A DNA stretch of 64,000 bases. Origin: Patescibacteria group bacterium. GTDB lineage: Bacteria > Patescibacteriota > Minisyncoccia > 2-02-FULL-40-12 > GWA2-44-9. Each line of letters starts with the position of its first letter. Position 1 is the first letter of the stretch. This document shows, piece after piece, positions 2,188 through 55,733 of the stretch. The notes under the pieces are model-generated. The model was not told where the DNA came from. It saw nothing but the letters and a program-made list of their open reading frames with translations, and made no database searches. The position numbers and the translations under genes are program-made. The DNA lies in contig JBBTSY010000009.1 in assembly GCA_038064515.1 (NCBI GenBank), positions 2,155-66,154 on the forward strand. Reading direction: 5' to 3'.

Positions 2188-3948
2188 ATGACGCACTCTG
2201 ACCTTCGTAAAAAATTTCTAGATTTCTTTCGGTCAAAACAGCACGTTGTTATCCCGTCTGCGCCTTTAGTACCCGTCAACGACTCGACGGTCTTATTCAC
2301 CACCGCTGGTATGCACCCACTAACCCCATATCTATTAGGTGAGCTACATCCGGCGGGCACACGCATTGCCAACGTTCAGAAATGCATTCGTACCGGTGAC
2401 ATTGATGAGGTCGGCGACGATACGCACCTCACTTTCTTTGAGATGCTCGGCAACTGGTCGCTGGGGGACTATTTCAAAAAAGACGCCATCGCTTGGAGTT
2501 ATGAGTTCCTGACTTCTCCGAAGTGGCTCAACATCGCGCCCGAACGGCTTGCCTTCTCGTGCTTCACGGGCGATGACGGCGCGCCGAAAGACGAAGAAGC
2601 TACTGCAATTTGGAAATCGTTAGGTATCCCTGATTCGCGCATTGTATTTTTGGGACGCGATGCGAACTGGTGGGGCCCCGCCGGTCAGACCGGCCCCTGC
2701 GGACCCGACACCGAAATGTTCTATTGGATAGACAACGATATTCCGGCACCGGAGCGATTTGATCCGTTCGATGTGCGCTGGGTTGAAATCTGGAACGATG
2801 TGTTCATGCAGTACCGCAAAACAGAATTAGGCATCTTTGAACTGCTCACAAAACCCAATGTTGATACCGGTATGGGCTTGGAGCGCACACTTGCAGTGCT
2901 CAATGGTAAATCTTCAGTGTACGACACTGAATTATTTGTGCCGTTGCTGAAAACGCTTCGCGAGCTATCAACGATTACTGAAGAGGAGAGCGAGCGCAAG
3001 CTCCGTATCATCGCGGATCACATGCGCGCCGCGGCGTTCATCATTACCGACGGCATCGAGCCTTCCAATAAAGATCGCGGATATGTCCTGCGGCGTCTTC
3101 TTCGTCGCGCGATAGTGTACGCGCAACAGTTGGGCATGCACACGGGCTGGCATAAACCGTTCATAGAAGCGCTTGTGGGTGTTTTGGGTGAAGCGTACCC
3201 CGAGCTGAAAACTAGTCAGGATATTATTGATCGCGCCATCATTATCGAAACGGACAAATTTGAAAAAACATTAGATAAGGGACTGCGAGAATTTAATAAA
3301 CTAAAAACAATCGCCGGTACCGATGCCTTCAACCTGTACCAGACCTACGGTTTCCCGTGGGAGCTTACGCACGAGCTTGCACTCGCACGAGGCATGCAAG
3401 TGGAGAAGTCGCAATTCGAAGCAGAATTTACAAAACATAAGGATCTCTCCCGCACGGCTTCTGTTGGCACATTCAAGGGAGGACTTGCCGACCATTCTGA
3501 TATAGTTGTGCGCTATCACACCGCCACCCACCTCATGCACAAAGCATTGCGCGATGTACTGGGCGCGCATGTGATACAGAAAGGGAGCAACATCAATGCC
3601 GAACGAACGCGGTTTGATTTCTCGCATCCCGTCAAAATGACGTACGAGCAGATTGCAAAAGTGGAAGCGCTAGTGAACGACTGGATTCGTCGCGACCTTC
3701 CGATGACACGCGAGATGATGCCCAAAGAAAAAGCGCTTGAACTCGGCGCGCTGGGCGCATTTGGCGAGAAATACGGCGACACTGTATCGGTGTATACTAT
3801 TACCGATCCGGCAACCGGGGAGGTTGTAAGCCGTGAATTTTGTGGCGGTCCGCATGTGGAGCGCACCGGCGCGATCGGAAAATTTAAAATTATTAAGGAG
3901 GAAGCGGTGAGCGCGGGTGTCCGCCGGATTCGCGCAACCCTAAATTAG
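2188..3948 (+). CDS. alaS: alanyl-tRNA synthetase, short form lacking the C-Ala domain
   Basis: Class II AlaRS catalytic core (FTTAGMHPL, FFEMLGNWSLGDYFK) and editing domain (HTATHLMHKAL, CGGPHV). 586 aa against ~875 for the full-length enzyme. Confidence 0.9.
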   Translation: MTHSDLRKKFLDFFRSKQHVVIPSAPLVPVNDSTVLFTTAGMHPLTPYLLGELHPAGTRIANVQKCIRTGDIDEVGDDTHLTFFEMLGNWSLGDYFKKDAIAWSYEFLTSPKWLNIAPERLAFSCFTGDDGAPKDEEATAIWKSLGIPDSRIVFLGRDANWWGPAGQTGPCGPDTEMFYWIDNDIPAPERFDPFDVRWVEIWNDVFMQYRKTELGIFELLTKPNVDTGMGLERTLAVLNGKSSVYDTELFVPLLKTLRELSTITEEESERKLRIIADHMRAAAFIITDGIEPSNKDRGYVLRRLLRRAIVYAQQLGMHTGWHKPFIEALVGVLGEAYPELKTSQDIIDRAIIIETDKFEKTLDKGLREFNKLKTIAGTDAFNLYQTYGFPWELTHELALARGMQVEKSQFEAEFTKHKDLSRTASVGTFKGGLADHSDIVVRYHTATHLMHKALRDVLGAHVIQKGSNINAERTRFDFSHPVKMTYEQIAKVEALVNDWIRRDLPMTREMMPKEKALELGALGAFGEKYGDTVSVYTITDPATGEVVSREFCGGPHVERTGAIGKFKIIKEEAVSAGVRRIRATLN

Positions 3949-20806: not shown

Positions 20807-20955
20807 TGAATCCTCACACTCACCTGACGAGCTGTTCCTGGTGGCGAGGATGGTCATGGATAATAGCATAATATGTCGTGTAATAGTTTGCTGCGCTGTA
20901 AGCACTTCGCTTAGCGGAACGCGAGCCATTACTCGTCAGCGAGTGTAAGGATGAA
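20806..20955 (+). repeat. TIR-140 intergenic element, copy 1 (ATGAA-[TCCTCACACTCACCTGACGAG ... CTCGTCAGCGAGTGTAAGG]-ATGAA)
   Basis: 19-21 bp terminal inverted repeats. Conserved internal blocks CTGTTCCTGGTG and GGAACGCGAGCCATTACT. Overlaps the mreB stop codon and directly abuts the GT4 start codon. Confidence 0.7.
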
Positions 20956-26571: not shown

Positions 26572-26723
26572 ATGAATCCTCACACTCACTGAAGAGCTGT
26601 TCCTGGTGATGGCGAGGGTTTATATGAATATATCCATAATACACTGATTGTATGACTTGCTTGTCCGCAATACCAAGTAAGGCGGAACGCGAGCCATTAC
26701 TCTTCAGTGAGTGTGAGGATGAA
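26572..26723 (+). repeat. TIR-140 intergenic element, copy 2 (ATGAA-[TCCTCACACTCACTGAAGAG ... CTCTTCAGTGAGTGTGAGG]-ATGAA)
   Basis: Perfect 19-20 bp TIR with compensatory A/T changes relative to copies 1 and 3. Abuts the LCP start codon. Confidence 0.7.
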
Positions 26724-34150: not shown

Positions 34151-35380
34151 TTAGAGATAGTCCGAAGGATTTAGCGAACCATCGAAATAATTAAAATAGA
34201 GCTGTCCCGCTTTAGTATAAGTAAAGAAGTCTTGATAGAGGCTAAGGTGAACATGTGAACCCGTAGAATTGCCTGTAGAGCCTTCATATCCAACGGCTTG
34301 TCCCTGGGTCACTTTTGTACCGACGCGAAGAGGCGCAAACGCGCTCATGTGGCCATAGACACTTACTAGTCCAAAACTGTCATGTTGAACGGCTACCCAG
34401 TTCCCGAACCCTGAATTGAAACCGTTAGCAATAATCTCTCCGGAGCCGATAACCTTAATCGGGGTTCCATAACCTCCGGCGATATCAATCCCATTATGCG
34501 GAGATCCCCCGTATGCTCCTCGTTTTGCATAGGTCGTCATACCGTAGCCCTGCGTCAAACGATAGGAGTCCTCCGGATATGTAAAGAGCTTTGTTCCTCG
34601 AGGAGGAACTCCCGTAGCTTTTACACGTATGATAAATAATCCGCCCGCAACAGCATCAGATTCCAGCTGTTGCATCTCGAGAAAAAGTTGACTGCGCTTT
34701 TTTTCTGCGGCAGTAAGCATTTTCTGATATTCTGCTTCTTGGCCCTTAGTCTGAGCTAGGATGGTGTCCTTTTGAGATTTTACCCCGGTTAAAGAGGAGC
34801 GCTTTGCGCTCTGTTCCTGATTCAGAGAAATAAGCTCCCCTTTCTTATCTTCTAGTCCAACTTTAGAAATCTCCAGCTGCTGCTTTTGATTGCGAAGATC
34901 GCCAATTAATTCCAGAAGTTTATCATTCACGTTTGCCAGTTGTTGAGCCTCGCTCAAAAACGTCGAAAGATTTTCATTCTTCATGAGTGTAGCCATTAAG
35001 TTCTCGTTATCGCGCTGATTCAAAAAAATAAGCAGTTCACCGACTGTCTCCCGCCGACGATCAATAGTCTGTTGAGTTTCAAAAATATTTCCCTCCATGT
35101 CGGTAATTTCTACTTTTGTTTTACTGATTTTTGTAGACGTCAAAATAATCTGCTGTTCCAGGCCCTGGATCTCTTTCTTGATAATCGCGATGTCTCGCTG
35201 AAGCGTTTGGGCTTTTGCGCGTTCTTCAGCGATACTTCCTTTGAATTGCTTAGCTTGCTCTTCAAGCACTTCAATTTGTTTAAGTAATTCAGCAATGCGT
35301 GCTTCGTTGGCGGCAAATGCTGGCACGACAAAATTAAAGGTAGCAATACTGATGAGCATGGTGCTAATAAATCGTTTCAT
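34151..35380 (-). CDS. M23/LytM-family peptidoglycan endopeptidase with signal peptide and coiled-coil
   Basis: C-terminal HNGIDIAGGYGTPI...GSTGNSTGSHVHLS M23 motifs. Start MKRFISTMLISIA at 35380, directly abutting repeat copy 3. Confidence 0.8.
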   Translation of the reverse strand: MKRFISTMLISIATFNFVVPAFAANEARIAELLKQIEVLEEQAKQFKGSIAEERAKAQTLQRDIAIIKKEIQGLEQQIILTSTKISKTKVEITDMEGNIFETQQTIDRRRETVGELLIFLNQRDNENLMATLMKNENLSTFLSEAQQLANVNDKLLELIGDLRNQKQQLEISKVGLEDKKGELISLNQEQSAKRSSLTGVKSQKDTILAQTKGQEAEYQKMLTAAEKKRSQLFLEMQQLESDAVAGGLFIIRVKATGVPPRGTKLFTYPEDSYRLTQGYGMTTYAKRGAYGGSPHNGIDIAGGYGTPIKVIGSGEIIANGFNSGFGNWVAVQHDSFGLVSVYGHMSAFAPLRVGTKVTQGQAVGYEGSTGNSTGSHVHLSLYQDFFTYTKAGQLYFNYFDGSLNPSDYL

Positions 35381-35524
35381 CCTCACACTCACTGACGAGA
35401 TATGGCTCGCTCCGCACAGCGTAGTGCTAGGGAGAAGCTTTTTCATATTCGACAGATAATTACTGCCATACTCAATATCATCGCCATTTCTAGGAACAAC
35501 TCGTCTGTGAGTGTGAGGATTCAT
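35376..35524 (-). repeat. TIR-140 intergenic element, copy 3, reverse orientation, abutting the M23 peptidase start and overlapping the gltX stop
   Basis: Read on the minus strand: ATGAA-[TCCTCACACTCACAGACGAG ... CTCGTCAGTGAGTGTGAGG]-ATGAA. Confidence 0.7.
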
Positions 35525-37428: not shown

Positions 37429-37467
37429 TACCTATAATTCTGTAAGACTAGGAATTATCAATAACTA

Positions 37468-37592
37468 AGTGAGGGTATATCCTTGAAGGAGCCTCTCGGA
37501 GGCGCATGCGCATGGTTAAGAGCATGCGACGAGAGCGAGCGCGAATTCCTCGCTGGGGAATTCGACGCGTGCTCCTGAAAGGATATATCCGA
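37468..37592. repeat. GC-rich nested palindromic element E (outer IR GGTATATCCTTGAAGGAGC/GCTCCTGAAAGGATATATCC; core CTCTCGGAGGCGC ... GACGCGT)
   Basis: Inverted repeats read directly. Shares core motifs with the elements at 48043-48141 and 54873-54972. Confidence 0.55.
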
Positions 37593-37599
37593 ACATTAT

Positions 37600-39528
37600 A
37601 TGTTTATAATCGAAGTCATTCCCCTCATCACCTTTCCGCCCCAGGTATCTCAAATCTTGAGCTATTTTTATGATCAGGCGCTCCCGAAAGGGGCCGTAGT
37701 TAAAGTTCAAATTCAAAAGAAAGAAGTCCAAGCAATAGTAGTCTTATCAACACCGCTCGAGCGCCAAAAAATAACGCTTAAAAAGTCTGCTTTTCAACTT
37801 AAGAAAATTTCTAAGGTTCTCGCTGATGAATCACAGGTAGGCTCTCATCAGTTTCAAACCGCCTTATGGCTTGCTAAACATTATTACGCTCCGCTGGGTC
37901 TATCTCTCAAGTCAGTGCTTCCACCATTTTTTAATAAGCGCGGCTATCAAACAACGCATGAATTAGTCCATGAAGAAATTCCTCCGTCTCGCCTCGCCTC
38001 TCCCCTACCTCTTTTTATCGAAGCTCGCGCCCACCAAACTGCAAGAAAACTCGAACCATTCATTAAAAAAGCCCTTAAAAAAGCAGGCCAAGTTCTTATT
38101 CTCTCACCCGACACCACAATGCTTAATTATCTTTTTGAATCATTTAAGAATCTCGGGGATTCCGCTCGTTTGTCATCCAAAATCTCCAACGCTGATTATT
38201 ATGACATCTGGCGACGAGTCGCGTCGGGTTCTTGCAAGATTATTTGCGCGACCCGTATCGGACTTTTTCTCCCCTTTCATGATTTGCGGATAATCATGGT
38301 GGAAGACCCCTTCCATGAATCTTATAAATCAGAGATGTCGCCGCGCTACAATACTTCCGATGTCGCGCTGAAAATCGCCGACTTCCACGGCGCGCGAACA
38401 ATCTTTATTGCTCCGATTCCCGATCTCAATATCGCATATGCTATTGATCAGCGGACCTTTACTTTACATCAAGAACGCCAAGTCTCACTCCCTGATACGG
38501 ACGTTGTTGATATCGAATATGAACGAAAAACCGGAAACTATTCGGTGTTCAGCCGCCTACTCCAGAAGCGCCTTATTGACGCCATTCGAGTTAAAGAACG
38601 TATTCTTCTCGTCTCGTCTCGGCGAGCTTATTCAGGAATTTTGATCTGTCATAATTGCGGGACCTTCGTAAAGTGCCCCAATTGCGAGATACCGATGCGC
38701 GTCCATAAAACCGCGGAATCAATGCTAGTATGCTACCACTGTTCAGCATACCAAAACTTTCCCAAAAACTGTGTTAATTGTCACAGCACTAAGCTTTCCC
38801 CTGCTGGTGTTGCTGGCAGTCAAAAAATCCAAGAACAATTGACTAAATTTTTAAGCGAACAAAAAATTGAAGACGTAGAATCGTTTATTTTGGATTCCGA
38901 CCTCACTCAAGATGATTCCCAAGAGCAAGAACTATTTGACGCAATAAAAAAATCAACCCAGCCGATCATTATCGCCACGCAGATGATCTTTAGCCATCGC
39001 TATCAGGAGCAATTTGATTTTATCGGCATCATTAATGCCGATGCGCTCATGAGTAATGCTGACTTTCGCGCTGAAGAGAGATTTTTTTACCAGTATGAGA
39101 AGCTTCTCGACTTTCAACCAGCGCGAATCACAATTCAGACATATAATCCGGAAAATTCCGCGATTATGATGGCCGCGCAGGAAAATTACAAGGCATTCTA
39201 CGAACGAGAACTGTCGAACCGAAAACTGCTTGGTTACCCCCCATTCTCCCGTCTTATAAAACTTACCTATGCGCATACTAGCGCAACTAAGGCATCTTTT
39301 GAGGCACGCGCTTTAAATGAAAAATTACGAATGGCTATTGCCCAGTTTAATTTCGGAGAAAGAATAAAAATCTTCGGCCCAAATCCCGCTTCGATAGCTC
39401 GAGAAAAGAACCAATACCACTATTCCATCATTTTAAAAATTGACCCTGAATTTCAGCCGCTTGCCAGCCTCCTTCGCTTTGTTCCTGCGCAATGGCATAT
39501 TGATGTTGATCCTCACCAAATACTGTGA
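37600..39528 (+). CDS. priA: primosomal protein N' (PriA) homolog with a degenerate ATPase (Walker A and DExH lost)
   Basis: PriA N-terminal 3'BD-like region, Cys4-Cys4 zinc region (CHNCG...CPNCE...CYHCS...CVNCHS) and C-terminal domain. Positions aligning to GVTGSGKT and DEEH read EARAHQTA and VEDPFHE. Confidence 0.75.
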   Translation: MFIIEVIPLITFPPQVSQILSYFYDQALPKGAVVKVQIQKKEVQAIVVLSTPLERQKITLKKSAFQLKKISKVLADESQVGSHQFQTALWLAKHYYAPLGLSLKSVLPPFFNKRGYQTTHELVHEEIPPSRLASPLPLFIEARAHQTARKLEPFIKKALKKAGQVLILSPDTTMLNYLFESFKNLGDSARLSSKISNADYYDIWRRVASGSCKIICATRIGLFLPFHDLRIIMVEDPFHESYKSEMSPRYNTSDVALKIADFHGARTIFIAPIPDLNIAYAIDQRTFTLHQERQVSLPDTDVVDIEYERKTGNYSVFSRLLQKRLIDAIRVKERILLVSSRRAYSGILICHNCGTFVKCPNCEIPMRVHKTAESMLVCYHCSAYQNFPKNCVNCHSTKLSPAGVAGSQKIQEQLTKFLSEQKIEDVESFILDSDLTQDDSQEQELFDAIKKSTQPIIIATQMIFSHRYQEQFDFIGIINADALMSNADFRAEERFFYQYEKLLDFQPARITIQTYNPENSAIMMAAQENYKAFYERELSNRKLLGYPPFSRLIKLTYAHTSATKASFEARALNEKLRMAIAQFNFGERIKIFGPNPASIAREKNQYHYSIILKIDPEFQPLASLLRFVPAQWHIDVDPHQIL

Positions 39529-48023: not shown

Positions 48024-48042
48024 TTGTATAAGTGGTTCTGAA

Positions 48043-48141
48043 GCAATGTGATATTTAGAGGGGCTCTCGGAGCGCGACGGCGCGAGAGTGAGCGCAAAAT
48101 CCAGCAGGATTTTGACGCGTACCCGATAATATCACATTGCT
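48043..48141. repeat. GC-rich palindromic element X in the grpE-dnaK spacer (perfect 13-bp outer IR GCAATGTGATATT/AATATCACATTGC; core CTCTCGGAGCGCGACGGCGCGAG; AT hairpin GCGCAAAATCC/GGATTTTGACGC)
   Basis: Read directly. Shares its core with the elements at 37468 and 54873. Confidence 0.6.
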
Positions 48142-48152
48142 GAAGAACCGAT

Positions 48153-48677
48153 TTATTTTATTATTTTTACTCGCGCCGGCCGGATCACTTTTTCATTTAA
48201 CATATATCCGGCTCGAAATTCCTCTGTTACCTTCTGCTCATCTCCTTGTCCTTCTTCCATCTGTACCGCTTCGTGAAGCAATGGATCAAATTTCTTGCCT
48301 ATTGATTCTATTTTTTTGATATGGTGCTTTCGCAACGCTCCGTACATTTTCGCCATACTATGCTCGATTCCTCTCAGCCATTCTCGATCGGTGTTCGGAG
48401 GCGCATGCTGGAGAGCGATCTCGAATGTATCAAGCACGTCAATCATATCAAGAAGAATCCATTCATTGCCATATTTGACTGCATCCTCGACTCGCCGCGC
48501 CTCATCTTTTTTGAAATTCACCAGGTCAGCTTGCGCTCGTTTCCATCCGTTCAGGTATTCCTCAACTTTATCATTAGCTTGCTGAAAAGCTTTATCCTGA
48601 ATTTGTTGAAGGGCTTGAGCTTCACTGGATTCCATCTCCTCTTCCAATGGAATGTTGATTTTATTGTGCTCTTTCAT
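48153..48677 (-). CDS. grpE: nucleotide exchange factor GrpE
   Basis: GrpE coiled-coil plus beta-domain homology. Operon position. Confidence 0.85.
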   Translation of the reverse strand: MKEHNKINIPLEEEMESSEAQALQQIQDKAFQQANDKVEEYLNGWKRAQADLVNFKKDEARRVEDAVKYGNEWILLDMIDVLDTFEIALQHAPPNTDREWLRGIEHSMAKMYGALRKHHIKKIESIGKKFDPLLHEAVQMEEGQGDEQKVTEEFRAGYMLNEKVIRPARVKIIK

Positions 48678-49452
48678 AATTTTCGACTGTTTCAGTTAAT
48701 GTATTTACTTTTTCGGCTGTATAGTTTATCAGCCCTAAATTATATTCATAATCCATGCGTATCGGTCCAATAATGGTTACTGACCCCATGCGATGCTGTG
48801 GCAAATGATATTTGGCATGAATCATCGTTTCCTCTTCAATCGCTCCGAACGGGTTTTCTCTGCCAATAAATATCTTAAAATGCTGAAGCTCATTTATGCC
48901 TCCGAAAAATTGACGCTCAAGCTGAATAAATCGTTCATCGAACTGGTCAAAAAAACTCATCAGTTCGAAAGTGCGACCAAATTCTCGGAACTCTGGAAAT
49001 TCCAGAAGACTAGCCAAGCCTTTCTGATAAAATTCGTCGCTAGCCGAATCATTTACGATTACTAAATTATCCGTAAGTTCATTAAGCAGATGCGCCACCA
49101 TCCGGTTTATTTCCCGCGGATCATGAGCAACTTCTGCAAAAGCATTATCAATGCGCCGCTTTGAGCGAGATTCTACACCGATATTTTCCTGCTGTAATAA
49201 TCCGTTTACAAAAAGCCGGTATGCCTTGTCGGTAGGAACTCTTCCAGCCGAGGTATGGGGCTGAACCAGGTAGCCGTCATTCTCTAGGGTCTGCATCTCA
49301 TTTCGGATAGTCGCAGGACTAACATCGAGATTACTTCGCTCGACAACCAGCGCCGAACCCACTGGTTCTGCGTGCTTAACATATTCTCGGACAATGAAAT
49401 CCAAGAGCTTTTTTTGTCGTTCGGTTACCATCACACCTTCTATTTTACTCAT
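48661..49452 (-). CDS. hrcA: heat-inducible transcription repressor HrcA
   Basis: Winged-helix N-terminus (LLDFIVREYVKHAEPVGSALV). Start MSKIEGV immediately after CIRCE. Confidence 0.85.
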   Translation of the reverse strand: MSKIEGVMVTERQKKLLDFIVREYVKHAEPVGSALVVERSNLDVSPATIRNEMQTLENDGYLVQPHTSAGRVPTDKAYRLFVNGLLQQENIGVESRSKRRIDNAFAEVAHDPREINRMVAHLLNELTDNLVIVNDSASDEFYQKGLASLLEFPEFREFGRTFELMSFFDQFDERFIQLERQFFGGINELQHFKIFIGRENPFGAIEEETMIHAKYHLPQHRMGSVTIIGPIRMDYEYNLGLINYTAEKVNTLTETVENYERAQ

Positions 49453-49478
49453 TAGCACTCTCGTGTCAAGAGTGCTAA
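49452..49478. promoter_or_regulatory. CIRCE operator TTAGCACTC-N9-GAGTGCTAA
   Basis: Perfect consensus inverted repeat with 9-nt spacer, overlapping the hrcA start codon. Confidence 0.85.
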
Positions 49479-49593
49479 TCCATTTTCTACGTTCAGGCCA
49501 CATGTTCAGCTTACTTGCTTCAGTACTTCCTCACCTTCGTTCCTCAACACATTTTACTTAGGGTTCGGGGCATATTTGTGATAAACTGCAAGC

Positions 49594-54746: not shown

Positions 54747-54872
54747 TTCCTTAACAACAGCCTGCCCGTCCGAAGGAGGGCAAACATAATATAAAAATAA
54801 CCTACGCATGATACCAGATAGACCCAAAATGGTCAATCCGATAATAACAGGAAGGGTGGGGTTTTAGAGTAA

Positions 54873-54972
54873 CGCGGCATGCCTTCTCGGGAGGCTTACG
54901 GAGCGCGACGGCGCGAGTACGAGACGAATTTTCAGTAGAAAATTACGTCGTACTCTCCGAAAGACATGCTGC
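54873..54972. repeat. GC-rich palindromic element Y upstream of rplU (outer IR GCGGCATGCCTTCTCGG/CCGAAAGACATGCTGC; core CGGAGCGCGACGGCGCGAG; AT hairpin GAGTACGAGACGAATTTTC/GAAAATTACGTCGTACTC)
   Basis: Same architecture and core as element X. Confidence 0.55.
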
Positions 54973-55030: not shown

Positions 55031-55058
55031 TTGACTTTTCCTGTAATAATGATATCAT
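55031..55058 (+). promoter_or_regulatory. promoter TTGACT-N16-TATCAT for islet G
   Basis: Hexamers at 55031-55036 and 55053-55058, followed by a hairpin-containing leader. Confidence 0.35.
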
Positions 55059-55124: not shown

Positions 55125-55733
55125 ATGAGTACGCTACAAGTTGCTCTTAGTGGGATCGCTCCCCAATTGAAGCTTGTGGAGCCTGGGCTGAAGCACACCG
55201 AGCGCGTGCTTCAGCTGATCATCGACGGGGCGGCCAAGATGGATCGCGCCGTCATGGGTATCGACAAGATCACCCGCCTCGTGGGCGCCATCGAGCTCCC
55301 CGACGCCGAGTCCACGGCCATCGCTTGGTTCCGCGAAAACGGCATCAAGCGACTCGCCGCCGCGGTTCTGGCGATCCGACTCTCGGACCATTCACTGGTC
55401 TACGAGATCCGGGTTGGCGATACCAAGATTCGAGACATCCATGTGGTGGGACGTCTGCGCAAGGCGGAAGCCTATGCGCAGGCCGTGGTCATTCCCAAAC
55501 AGAAGTGGCCCCTGCTCACCGTCAAAGGTCAGCCGGATTTCAAGGCCCTCCGTCAGTGGTCCTGGGACCCCGAAGGAGCGGTGGTGATCCGGTCGATGGG
55601 GACCACCCGCTTGGCCGTCGCGGAAGTATTCGCGACGGTGGCCAACAGCCTCGCCGAGAACCTCGGCATCGTGGGTTGCTCCCCGCCCCGCGCTGATCGC
55701 CGCCTTCAGGCGATCCGCCGTGGTAACCAGTAG
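55125..55733 (+). CDS. hypothetical protein; high-GC islet G
   Basis: 202-aa ORF, about 62% GC, AAGGCAAGGG SD, terminator at ~55757-55795. Confidence 0.5.
   Translation: MSTLQVALSGIAPQLKLVEPGLKHTERVLQLIIDGAAKMDRAVMGIDKITRLVGAIELPDAESTAIAWFRENGIKRLAAAVLAIRLSDHSLVYEIRVGDTKIRDIHVVGRLRKAEAYAQAVVIPKQKWPLLTVKGQPDFKALRQWSWDPEGAVVIRSMGTTRLAVAEVFATVANSLAENLGIVGCSPPRADRRLQAIRRGNQ

Follow-up and report, generated by a model that had tools for sequence, protein, structure and literature searches.

Hairpin repeats at priA, dnaK and rplU belong to a dispersed family of structured palindromes, probably small mobile DNA elements of Patescibacteria

Gene context and form of the three window copies

The window (the whole 64-kb stretch of Patescibacteria DNA analysed here) contains exactly three copies of a GC-rich, hairpin-forming palindrome, all on the + strand (Table 1), and the gene context of each was confirmed with Pfam. 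The 37.5 kb copy has the same strand as priA and stops 9 nt 5' of the priA ATG (37600). The 48 kb copy runs antisense to the genes of the hrcA-grpE-dnaK operon (dnaK start 48023, -; grpE stop 48153, -), and its full palindrome takes up 116 of the 129 nt of the grpE-dnaK spacer. The GrpE protein of the window, whose MAG comes from Hainich groundwater, is nearest to homologues from Yanofskybacteria. The 54.9 kb copy is found upstream of rplU, on the opposite strand, with the predicted rplU promoter (TTGACC-17-TATCAT, 54836–54808, -) on one side and the predicted promoter of a divergent gene (55031–55058, +) on the other. It is situated upstream of both predicted -35 boxes and, as promoter-like sites occur on both sides of it, probably lies outside both transcripts.

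Table 1. Positions of the element copies and their parts within the window
Feature	Position	Strand	Remarks
Copy 1 (37.5 kb), priA-proximal	37471..37591	+	121-nt covariance-model span; extended P2 hairpin (GCGCATGC...GCATGCG)
Copy 1, maximal extent	37463..37606	+	stretch in common with the near-identical L060 copy at an unrelated locus
Copy 2 (48 kb), grpE-dnaK spacer	48041..48141	+	best preserved of the window copies
Copy 2, full palindrome	48034..48149	+	GGTTCT to AGAACC; 2x2 internal loop
Copy 2, outer stem P1, 5' arm GCAATGTGATATT	48043..48055	+	perfect complement of 48128–48140
Copy 2, outer stem P1, 3' arm AATATCACATTGC	48128..48140	+	pairs with 48043–48055
Copy 2, P2	48064..48088	+	CTCTC, unpaired GGA(G), GCGC-GACG-GCGC hairpin, GAGAG
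Copy 2, P3	48090..48120	+	GAGCGC, AAAATCC, AGCA loop, GGATTTT, G-(A bulge)-CGCG-T
Copy 3 (54.9 kb), decayed, between divergent rplU and hypothetical-gene promoters	about 54873..54972	+	covariance model, fold

Each copy is 100–145 nt long. Its long outer stem, with a sequence peculiar to that copy, leads up to a three-way junction that is conserved: CTCTC-GGAG-(GC hairpin)-GAGAG-N-GAGCGC-(hairpin with AGCA loop)-G(A)CGCG-T. An identical 18-mer, GGAGCGCGACGGCGCGAG, is present in the 48 kb and 54.9 kb copies (48069–48086 and 54900–54917), and matches to it with up to three mismatches number 3 in the window against 0.08 in dinucleotide shuffles. The 37.5 kb and 48 kb copies have the motifs CTCTCGGAG, GAGAG-N-GAGCGC and GACGCGT in common. 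Degeneration of the 54.9 kb copy (CTTACGGAG, GAGTACGAGACG, TACGTCGT) has left it without a true GACGCGT box; changes also affect the stem of P2 and the base of P3, and its arms (GCGGCATGCC / GACATGCTGC) contain one G:T and one C:A mismatch. In the 37.5 kb copy the outer stem is GGGTATATCCTT/AAGGATATATCC, the P3 stem is GAATTCC/GGAATTC and the tip of P2 is longer than that of the 48 kb copy. Its maximal extent, which takes in the annotated start codon of priA as well as a partial palindrome on the outside, follows from an alignment with the copies at loci L060 and L079, where similarity to L060 begins at AACTAAGTGAGGG and stops at ATATGTTT. The 48 kb copy has a short inner helix (GGG/CCC) between P1 and the hairpins, and a one-base linker joins P2 to P3.

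All three copies are predicted to fold far more stably than dinucleotide shuffles of themselves. The + strand values are -65.2 kcal/mol (z = -7.0) for the 37.5 kb copy, -54 kcal/mol (z = -8.6) for the 48 kb copy and -44 kcal/mol (z = -4.6) for the 54.9 kb copy. A covariance model based on 35 copies from outside the window was run over the whole window with filters off, and it scored the 48 kb copy at 84 bits (E 8e-24), the 37.5 kb copy at 66.5 bits (E 3e-18) and the 54.9 kb copy at 40.3 bits (E 6e-10); the next match in the window reached 14.8 bits. On the reverse strand the 48 kb copy scored 11.5 bits against 84 on the forward strand, so the conserved part is asymmetric. A match to the 18-mer at 3858–3875 and a partial match at 2983–3004 were set aside as chance: both are inside the alaS ORF, lack a fold and were missed by the covariance model.

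The palindromes had been picked out beforehand by a sequence-only reading, and shuffles, folds and the covariance model agree that they are real. That reading located all three loci correctly, although the first two palindromes extend further than it gave them (Table 1). The core it saw in all three copies is indeed shared, while the GACGCGT box that it also ascribed to all of them fails for the degenerate 54.9 kb copy. Its perfect 13-bp inverted repeat exists and belongs, once the label is corrected, to the 48 kb copy; likewise, the 18/18 core identity that it reported is that between the 48 kb and 54.9 kb copies. Its suggestion that the elements might act as terminators, attenuators or protein-binding sites is unsupported: a terminator scan called none of the window copies, T-runs are absent, the 48 kb copy is antisense to its operon and the 54.9 kb copy is upstream of the -35 boxes. 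A specific regulatory or small-RNA role at priA, dnaK and rplU is thus not supported, and the three copies are best seen as passengers, any effects on expression (for example, of stable hairpins in transcripts) being incidental.

Distribution of the family

The two better window copies supplied a strict pattern, CTCTCGGAG N8-36 GAGAGNGAGCGC N14-30 GACGCG, which matched 35 stretches in a one-genome-per-species collection and 46 in JGI/ENA metagenome contigs. Among IMG/VR viral contigs there were 0 strict matches, and a phage origin was rejected on this basis. Individual MAGs hold several strict matches, up to 11. Long contigs with copies include Ga0265338_10000002 (856 kb) and Ga0196965_1000012 (220 kb). 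With the more diverged extra copies in the fetched loci included, about 67 distinct copies are recognised by the covariance model, so the similarity is not confined to the three window loci. The earlier proposal of repeats dispersed at the DNA level is borne out by these copies, which are spread over many genomes, with empty sites in relatives and identical elements at unrelated loci.

Almost all MAGs with genome matches are labelled Paceibacterota, Parcubacteria, Campbellbacteria, Minisyncoccia, 'Patescibacteria group' or 'Saccharibacteria', taxon labels being used as given by the depositors. The copies L009 and L025 come from a MAG that its depositor labelled Pseudomonadota. Two matches on GC-rich Deltaproteobacteria contigs (L027 and L086) were attributed to chance in GC-rich sequence, as they reached 25 bits over only part of the model. 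Several copies are at contig ends, and one locus looks chimeric.

The flanks examined were 2–15 kb pieces around the copies, with context ORFs called naively. Relative to the flanking genes, 12 copies are oriented opposite/opposite, 9 same/same and 9 mixed, which upholds the earlier remark that orientation is inconstant. The idea that the elements settle in 5' regions proved too narrow, since copies are also found inside ORFs, downstream of the 3' ends of genes, in spacers between cistrons and in regions between divergent promoters.

A search of the whole window against Rfam (4227 families) at gathering thresholds returned three tRNAs and nothing else. At E<=10, the regions around the 37.5 kb copy and the canonical copy L004 gave only generic long-hairpin matches; the sub-threshold hits are miRNA precursors with 22–36 bits, against the 53–124 needed. 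No account of the family turned up in the literature covered, albeit incompletely, on repeats of palindromic or hairpin form or on structured RNAs in CPR/Patescibacteria, and it has apparently not been described before.

Conserved structure

Across the family, the element is a nested palindrome of about 100–170 bp that combines a long, lineage-specific stem with a conserved asymmetric cap. The stem is nearly perfect (arm median about 28 bp, range 13–45). As a single strand the cap, of about 55–80 nt, forms a three-way junction whose two hairpins are short, covary and are unrelated to each other. Its conserved unpaired bases are the GGAG bulge, the bulged A and often a tandem GA/GA loop, which in many copies is part of a CTTC-GA-GGAG / CTCC-GA-GAAG segment directly below the junction.

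In the alignment of 67 copies, 93.7% of pair cells hold standard pairs, compared with 63.6% in column shuffles and 38–47% with slid partners, and changes on both sides of a pair were counted in 728 cells against 226 in shuffles. Covariation is seen at all 14 outer-stem pairs, at the tip of P2 and at 8 of the 9 P3 pairs. Within P2, the pairs of the inner hairpin covary (CG/GC/AU/UA) and the CTCTC/GAGAG stem is nearly invariant; in helix 5 of P3, both-side changes affect 8 of 9 pairs and 96.7% of cells are paired. The invariance of CTCTCGGAG, GAGAGNGAGCGC and GACGCG is partly circular, because the search pattern fixed them for most copies. The base of P3 covaries in the diverged copies that only the model found, from GCGC/GCGC to GAGA/TCTC or GGAA/TTCC. 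A structure-blind MAFFT alignment passed to RNAalifold gave the same three-way junction.

Copies inside protein-coding genes

Ten copies are inside housekeeping ORFs, in frame, free of stop codons and in both orientations. They are found in LigA (L019), TsaD (L051), PolA (L085), MnmA (L030, L011 and L031), TGT (L028, two copies in opposite orientations) and DnaE (L032 antisense and L070 sense, in the same domain). In-frame residence in essential genes of related genomes is the most informative property of the family and was missed by the sequence-only reading. The in-gene copies are read in at least two forward frames as well as on the reverse strand, so there is no family-wide peptide. Stop-free frames number 3.45 of 6 in the copies and 2.08 of 6 in composition-matched shuffles. 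A survey of the invaded proteins with a 41-aa element-encoded peptide returned no indexed candidates and was uninformative. Ten copies classed as intergenic have co-directional flanking ORFs; none of these copies splits a gene, and their flanks are distinct genes.

The insertion site in MnmA was compared among homologues. The insert is missing from 84 of the 120 closest homologues, which have a 25-residue segment (TGHYA...KDQSYF) instead, while about 19 of the 120 carry 34–50 extra aa at the same point, with differing element frames and strands. In a pair of syntenic mnmA orthologues (72% identity, 387 aa each), related caps lie in opposite orientation at the same site, which implies that the element inverts within its arms or that the site was hit more than once. 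In an AlphaFold model of MnmA (pTM 0.82), insert residues 154–181 have pLDDT values below 50 and no secondary structure, and form a loop between the strands at 144–148 and 188–192. The model suggests, for this one protein, that the insert is tolerated as a disordered surface loop. The same MnmA and DnaE sites are filled in distant genomes, and such cases could be ancient conserved inserts instead of signs of mobility.

The in-gene copies might alternatively be small hairpin introns, in which an enzyme, for example of the RNase III type, cuts the stem and the flanking exons are joined, leaving the insert untranslated. Long perfect duplexes do resemble RNase III substrates, and conserved sites in replication, repair and tRNA-modification genes are reminiscent of homing introns and inteins. 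However, all ten in-gene copies are in frame and stop-free, for which frame alone has a chance probability of (1/3)^10; about half of the MnmA inserts are antisense, an orientation that would present the complement of the asymmetric cap; and none of the copies was seen to divide a gene into halves in different frames. Introns of this kind are highly improbable.

Gain, loss and probable movement

Three syntenic relatives (GrpE 58–60% identical) keep the recR-dnaB-cysS-Nramp-hrcA-grpE-dnaK neighbourhood and have no copy anywhere in 45 kb (L039, L041 and L042). In L039 and L041 the grpE-dnaK spacer is only 16–17 nt, and in L042 an HSP20 gene follows grpE. The spacer upstream of rplU in L041 and L042 is missing some 125 nt, in which the third copy lies in the window. 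A priA-type copy is present almost unchanged, with its arms and some 10–15 nt beyond them, at L060, where the flanks are unrelated, priA is absent and the copy comes after a sugar-kinase gene. Another lineage, with the arms GGGGGAGGACTCTTGG.GTCC..., is found in ligA, tsaD and polA of three assemblies and specifies the same peptide in each. Two copies within one genome (L004 and L006) have identical caps and unrelated arms. Cap modules look reshuffled between copies, and weak arm motifs recur (GCAAAAG..., ...CCTTC).

The LigA alignment raised the idea that one arm was part of the target and was duplicated in inverse orientation at insertion. It was rejected on three grounds: the same arms and peptide occur in the TsaD and PolA inserts, the priA-type arms recur at an unrelated locus, and the length of the DnaE insert equals that of both arms plus the cap.

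Flanking direct repeats of at least 4 bp at the palindrome ends were seen in 4 of 58 copies, against 3.6 in a shuffled control; because the ends are not fixed to the base, duplications of 2–3 bp are below the resolution of this test. The annotated flanks (2–15 kb pieces) showed no transposase or other mobilising gene adjoining any copy, no RAYT (Y1 HUH) transposase was noticed in them, and no autonomous parent element or parent IS was seen around the copies. No filled/empty pair of sites was close enough for base-by-base junctions, so we infer transposition rather than observe it.

Patchiness also bears on whether the element is a DNA site used by the host, where a chromosome-organising, recombination or replication protein binds or cuts, or an invertible switch, and kept for the host's benefit. 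In favour of such a role, the cap shows conservation, cruciforms could be extruded from the long perfect inverted repeats, orthologous genes carry copies in both orientations at one site, and copies recur in or beside DNA-replication and tRNA-modification genes. This last bias may be trivial, as the small genomes of CPR bacteria consist largely of informational genes. Against a host site, copies are patchy among close relatives and show no positional regularity, residence in enzyme-coding loops is hard to square with a benefit to the host, and the decay of resident copies (see below) argues against purifying selection at each site. Such a role is therefore quite unlikely.

DNA element or RNA

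Whether the conserved structure acts as DNA or as a transcript was approached through strand asymmetries. Transition mismatches in the arms, counted symmetrically from the alignment, were 28 G:T and 25 A:C, and this near equality gives no sign of selection on one transcript strand. A fold-based count (G:T 37, A:C 10) was discarded as biased, because folding rewards G:U. In one subfamily there were 4 G:T and 1 A:C mismatches. Standard G:U pairs are rare in the stems of the 67-copy alignment. Position 48139 in the 48 kb copy has A instead of G in other strains of the species, with no compensation in the opposite arm, and the priA copy of a relative (PriA 88% identical) differs at 3 arm positions, of which 0 are compensated. 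These two cases and the 54.9 kb copy show that resident copies decay without compensation. Several of the strand and decay tests point to DNA.

The chief competing explanation is that the elements specify a structured RNA that works as a small RNA, as a cis-regulator or as a scaffold for proteins, with the junction as its functional part and the long stem as a helix for processing or stability. All helices covary strongly and unpaired junction bases are conserved across deep lineages; with a cap so conserved and helices fully compensated, a selected cellular nucleic-acid function would look alike. The + strand folds are the more stable in two of the three window copies, the tandem GA/GA loop and the loops rich in purines would turn into pyrimidine mismatches on the opposite strand, and the subfamily with 4 G:T to 1 A:C leans the same way. 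These loops and the more stable + strand folds speak for the cap-sense strand as the one that folds, be it RNA or single-stranded DNA. An RNA role, on the other hand, sits poorly with the absence of any Rfam family at E<=10 beyond generic hairpins, with orientations that follow no consistent pattern relative to transcription units, and with antisense copies inside ORFs (L028, L032 and L089). The 54.9 kb copy outside both predicted transcripts, the missing copies in close relatives, the uncompensated arm changes in resident copies and the overall lack of a G:U bias weigh in the same direction, and we consider a functional RNA unlikely.

Comparison with known repeat families

The closest match in behaviour is the Rickettsia palindromic elements (RPE). 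In the summary of Ogata et al. (2000) given by PMC10969869, RPE-1 to RPE-10 are described as palindromic sequences of about 100–150 bp, many of them in frame in unrelated genes, and RPE inserts are predicted to be compatible with the protein fold. Like RPE, the Patescibacteria elements are palindromic and non-autonomous, reside both between genes and in frame within them in reduced-genome, host-dependent bacteria, and have no known transposase. The behaviour in common thus comprises in-frame residence in unrelated genes, intergenic residence and, as predicted for MnmA only, tolerance of the insert by the fold. The two groups belong to different phyla, and their sequences are apparently unrelated. 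An RPE family has one conserved peptide in one frame, whereas the Patescibacteria elements are read in several frames and both orientations; unlike RPE, only their asymmetric three-way-junction cap is family-wide and the stem varies by lineage.

A looser analogy may be drawn with the GC clusters, double-hairpin elements and repetitive hairpin-forming elements of mitochondria (for example, those of sponges, PMC2800124), GC-rich hairpins that invade compact, AT-richer genomes, coding sequence included, and keep their structure more than their sequence, as the Patescibacteria family seems to do. They differ in being organellar, shorter and apparently without a conserved three-way junction.

The sequence-only reading had likened the window copies to MITEs and to REP/BIME elements, and neither likeness was sustained. 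The MITEs (Correia/NEMIS, ERIC/IRU, RUP, BOX, Nezha) are similarly small, non-coding, multi-copy, hairpin-forming and patchy, and are occasionally intragenic with in-frame fusions (PMC10969869). MITEs, however, have family-conserved terminal inverted repeats derived from a parent IS, together with target-site duplications, while in the Patescibacteria elements the outer arms differ by lineage with no family-wide terminal repeats, no target-site duplication was detected and no parent IS was seen. A second, separate repeat family in the window fits the MITE description better than the hairpin elements do.

REP, BIME and REPIN sequences are likewise GC-rich, palindromic, multi-copy and mostly intergenic in either orientation, and REP-type elements are thought to move as folded single strands through a trans-acting HUH (Y1) enzyme, RAYT. 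A REP is an imperfect palindrome of 20–40 nt with a conserved 5' tetranucleotide, and a REPIN is an inverted doublet of REPs. The Patescibacteria unit is instead 100–170 nt long, with one asymmetric cap, two unrelated hairpins and longer stems. REPs are also strictly extragenic, in contrast to the ten copies inside ORFs described above.

The attC sites of integrons carry R''/L''...L'/R' boxes (RYYYAAC ... GTTRRRY) at the outer ends of the palindrome, beside gene cassettes. Identity with attC was rejected: the boxes are absent, the outer ends differ from copy to copy and it is the middle that is conserved.

A probable mobile hairpin of Patescibacteria

Taking together the multi-copy dispersal of a common fold, its patchy presence, the identical copies at unrelated sites and the in-frame residence in both orientations, the three window loci are probably copies of a family of small, non-coding, non-autonomous selfish mobile DNA elements of Patescibacteria. 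The whole hairpin, arms included, would be copied into short intergenic spacers and into the loops of housekeeping enzymes, where it would be translated as a disordered peptide; it can take either orientation at one site. A trans-acting enzyme may recognise the folded, single-stranded cap and move the element. Selection for transposition competence would keep the stems paired in active lineages, and resident copies would decay.

A further reading, which we regard as conceivable though doubtful, is that of a structure-defined mobile element whose sole heritable identity is the cap, and which moves as a folded strand by means of a Patescibacteria-specific enzyme, with snap-back resynthesis of the arms. 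The moving form would be a folded single strand, either DNA or RNA copied back to DNA, and snap-back priming would re-make one stem arm from the other in each round. Snap-back would account for perfect yet unrelated stems beside identical caps in active lineages, as in L004 and L006, and also for the lack of a G:U bias, the absence of a visible target-site duplication and the flipping in place. If true, this would constitute a widespread engine of in-frame peptide insertion into essential CPR enzymes.

Patescibacteria (CPR) form a very large branch of the Bacteria, for the most part uncultured, with tiny genomes and with proteins and rRNAs noted for unusual insertions. A hairpin element that resides in spacers and in the genes for DNA ligase, replicative polymerase and tRNA-modification enzymes would account for some of the protein insertions, and also for some of the assembly breaks in MAGs. 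It would provide a second, independent case of selfish DNA inside protein genes, hitherto known mainly from Rickettsia, and the combination of no recognisable transposase with no target duplication points to an unknown mechanism of mobilisation. The covariance model allows annotators to mask these elements, and so to avoid miscalling them as riboswitches, terminators or novel protein domains.

Hairpin copies at priA and within MnmA

The annotated start codon and first codons of priA (ATGTTT; window 37600–37606, corresponding to L060 13660–13670) fall within the stretch that the priA-proximal hairpin copy has in common with a paralogous copy at an unrelated locus, L060. priA may thus owe its start to the element, or have had it displaced by the element. 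The priA-proximal copy is also present in a relative (L079), in which a weak covariance-model match (279–374, − strand; 26.7 bits) lies directly downstream of priA; the same model, searched against the window, returned no counterpart of this match at E ≤ 10.

In the MnmA homologue P0122, an insert of 50 residues is found at the point where the hairpin element sits, and this insert seems to combine fragments of the element that face both ways. A second homologue, P0236, carries at the same site an insert of another kind, 100 residues long and rich in lysine and glutamate. This position in MnmA looks like a general insertion hotspot.

Other features of the window

A second repeat family, unrelated to the hairpin element and with a unit length of about 145 nt, is represented by three elements. 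Their 23 bp terminal inverted repeats are conserved (ATCCTCACACTCAC(C)TGACGAG ... CTCGTCAG(C/T)GAGTGTGAGGAT), whereas the interiors have diverged between the three. Two of the three lie between genes; the remaining one overlaps an ORF (34151–35524, − strand) at its 5′ end. They look like classical MITEs.

The hrcA ORF (48661–49503, − strand) has a promoter-like site at its 5′ end, and a perfect inverted repeat of the CIRCE type overlaps this site. An HrcA operator is expected for the hrcA-grpE-dnaK operon, and this repeat is the predicted one. The promoter-like sites of rplU and of the hypothetical gene at 55125 form a divergent pair, and the −35/−10 layout of the rplU site is kept in a syntenic relative (L041). 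The ORF labelled from its context as a putative alanyl-tRNA synthetase is short for this enzyme, which fits the reduced proteins of Patescibacteria.

Coordinates of features in the window and of paired hairpin copies in other loci
Feature	Position	Strand	Remarks
Second repeat family	20809–20952, 26575–26720, 35378–35517		three elements
Putative alanyl-tRNA synthetase ORF	2188–3948		586 aa
CIRCE-type inverted repeat	49451–49479		ATTAGCACTC-N9-GAGTGCTAAT
Promoter-like site, hrcA	49469–49442	−	TTGACA-16-TAAAAT
Promoter-like site, rplU	54808–54836	−	extended −10 (TG)
Promoter-like site, gene at 55125	55031–55058	+	extended −10 (TG)
Inverted hairpin pair, L014	3410–3509, 6675–6776	+, −	brackets 3.1 kb including ftsZ
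Inverted hairpin pair, L028	2817–2915, 3197–3295	−, +	within a single tgt gene, 280 nt between copies

Possible assembly breaks and inverted pairs

Several hairpin copies lie at contig ends (L020; L024, 1–74; L082, 1–134). In the copy at L021 3741–3857 the two arms do not pair with each other, and its 3′ flank is identical to the 3′ flank of the copy at L007 1293–1340. The elements seem to break or chimerise metagenome-derived assemblies. Closely spaced pairs in inverted orientation, as in L014 and L028, could mediate inversions.
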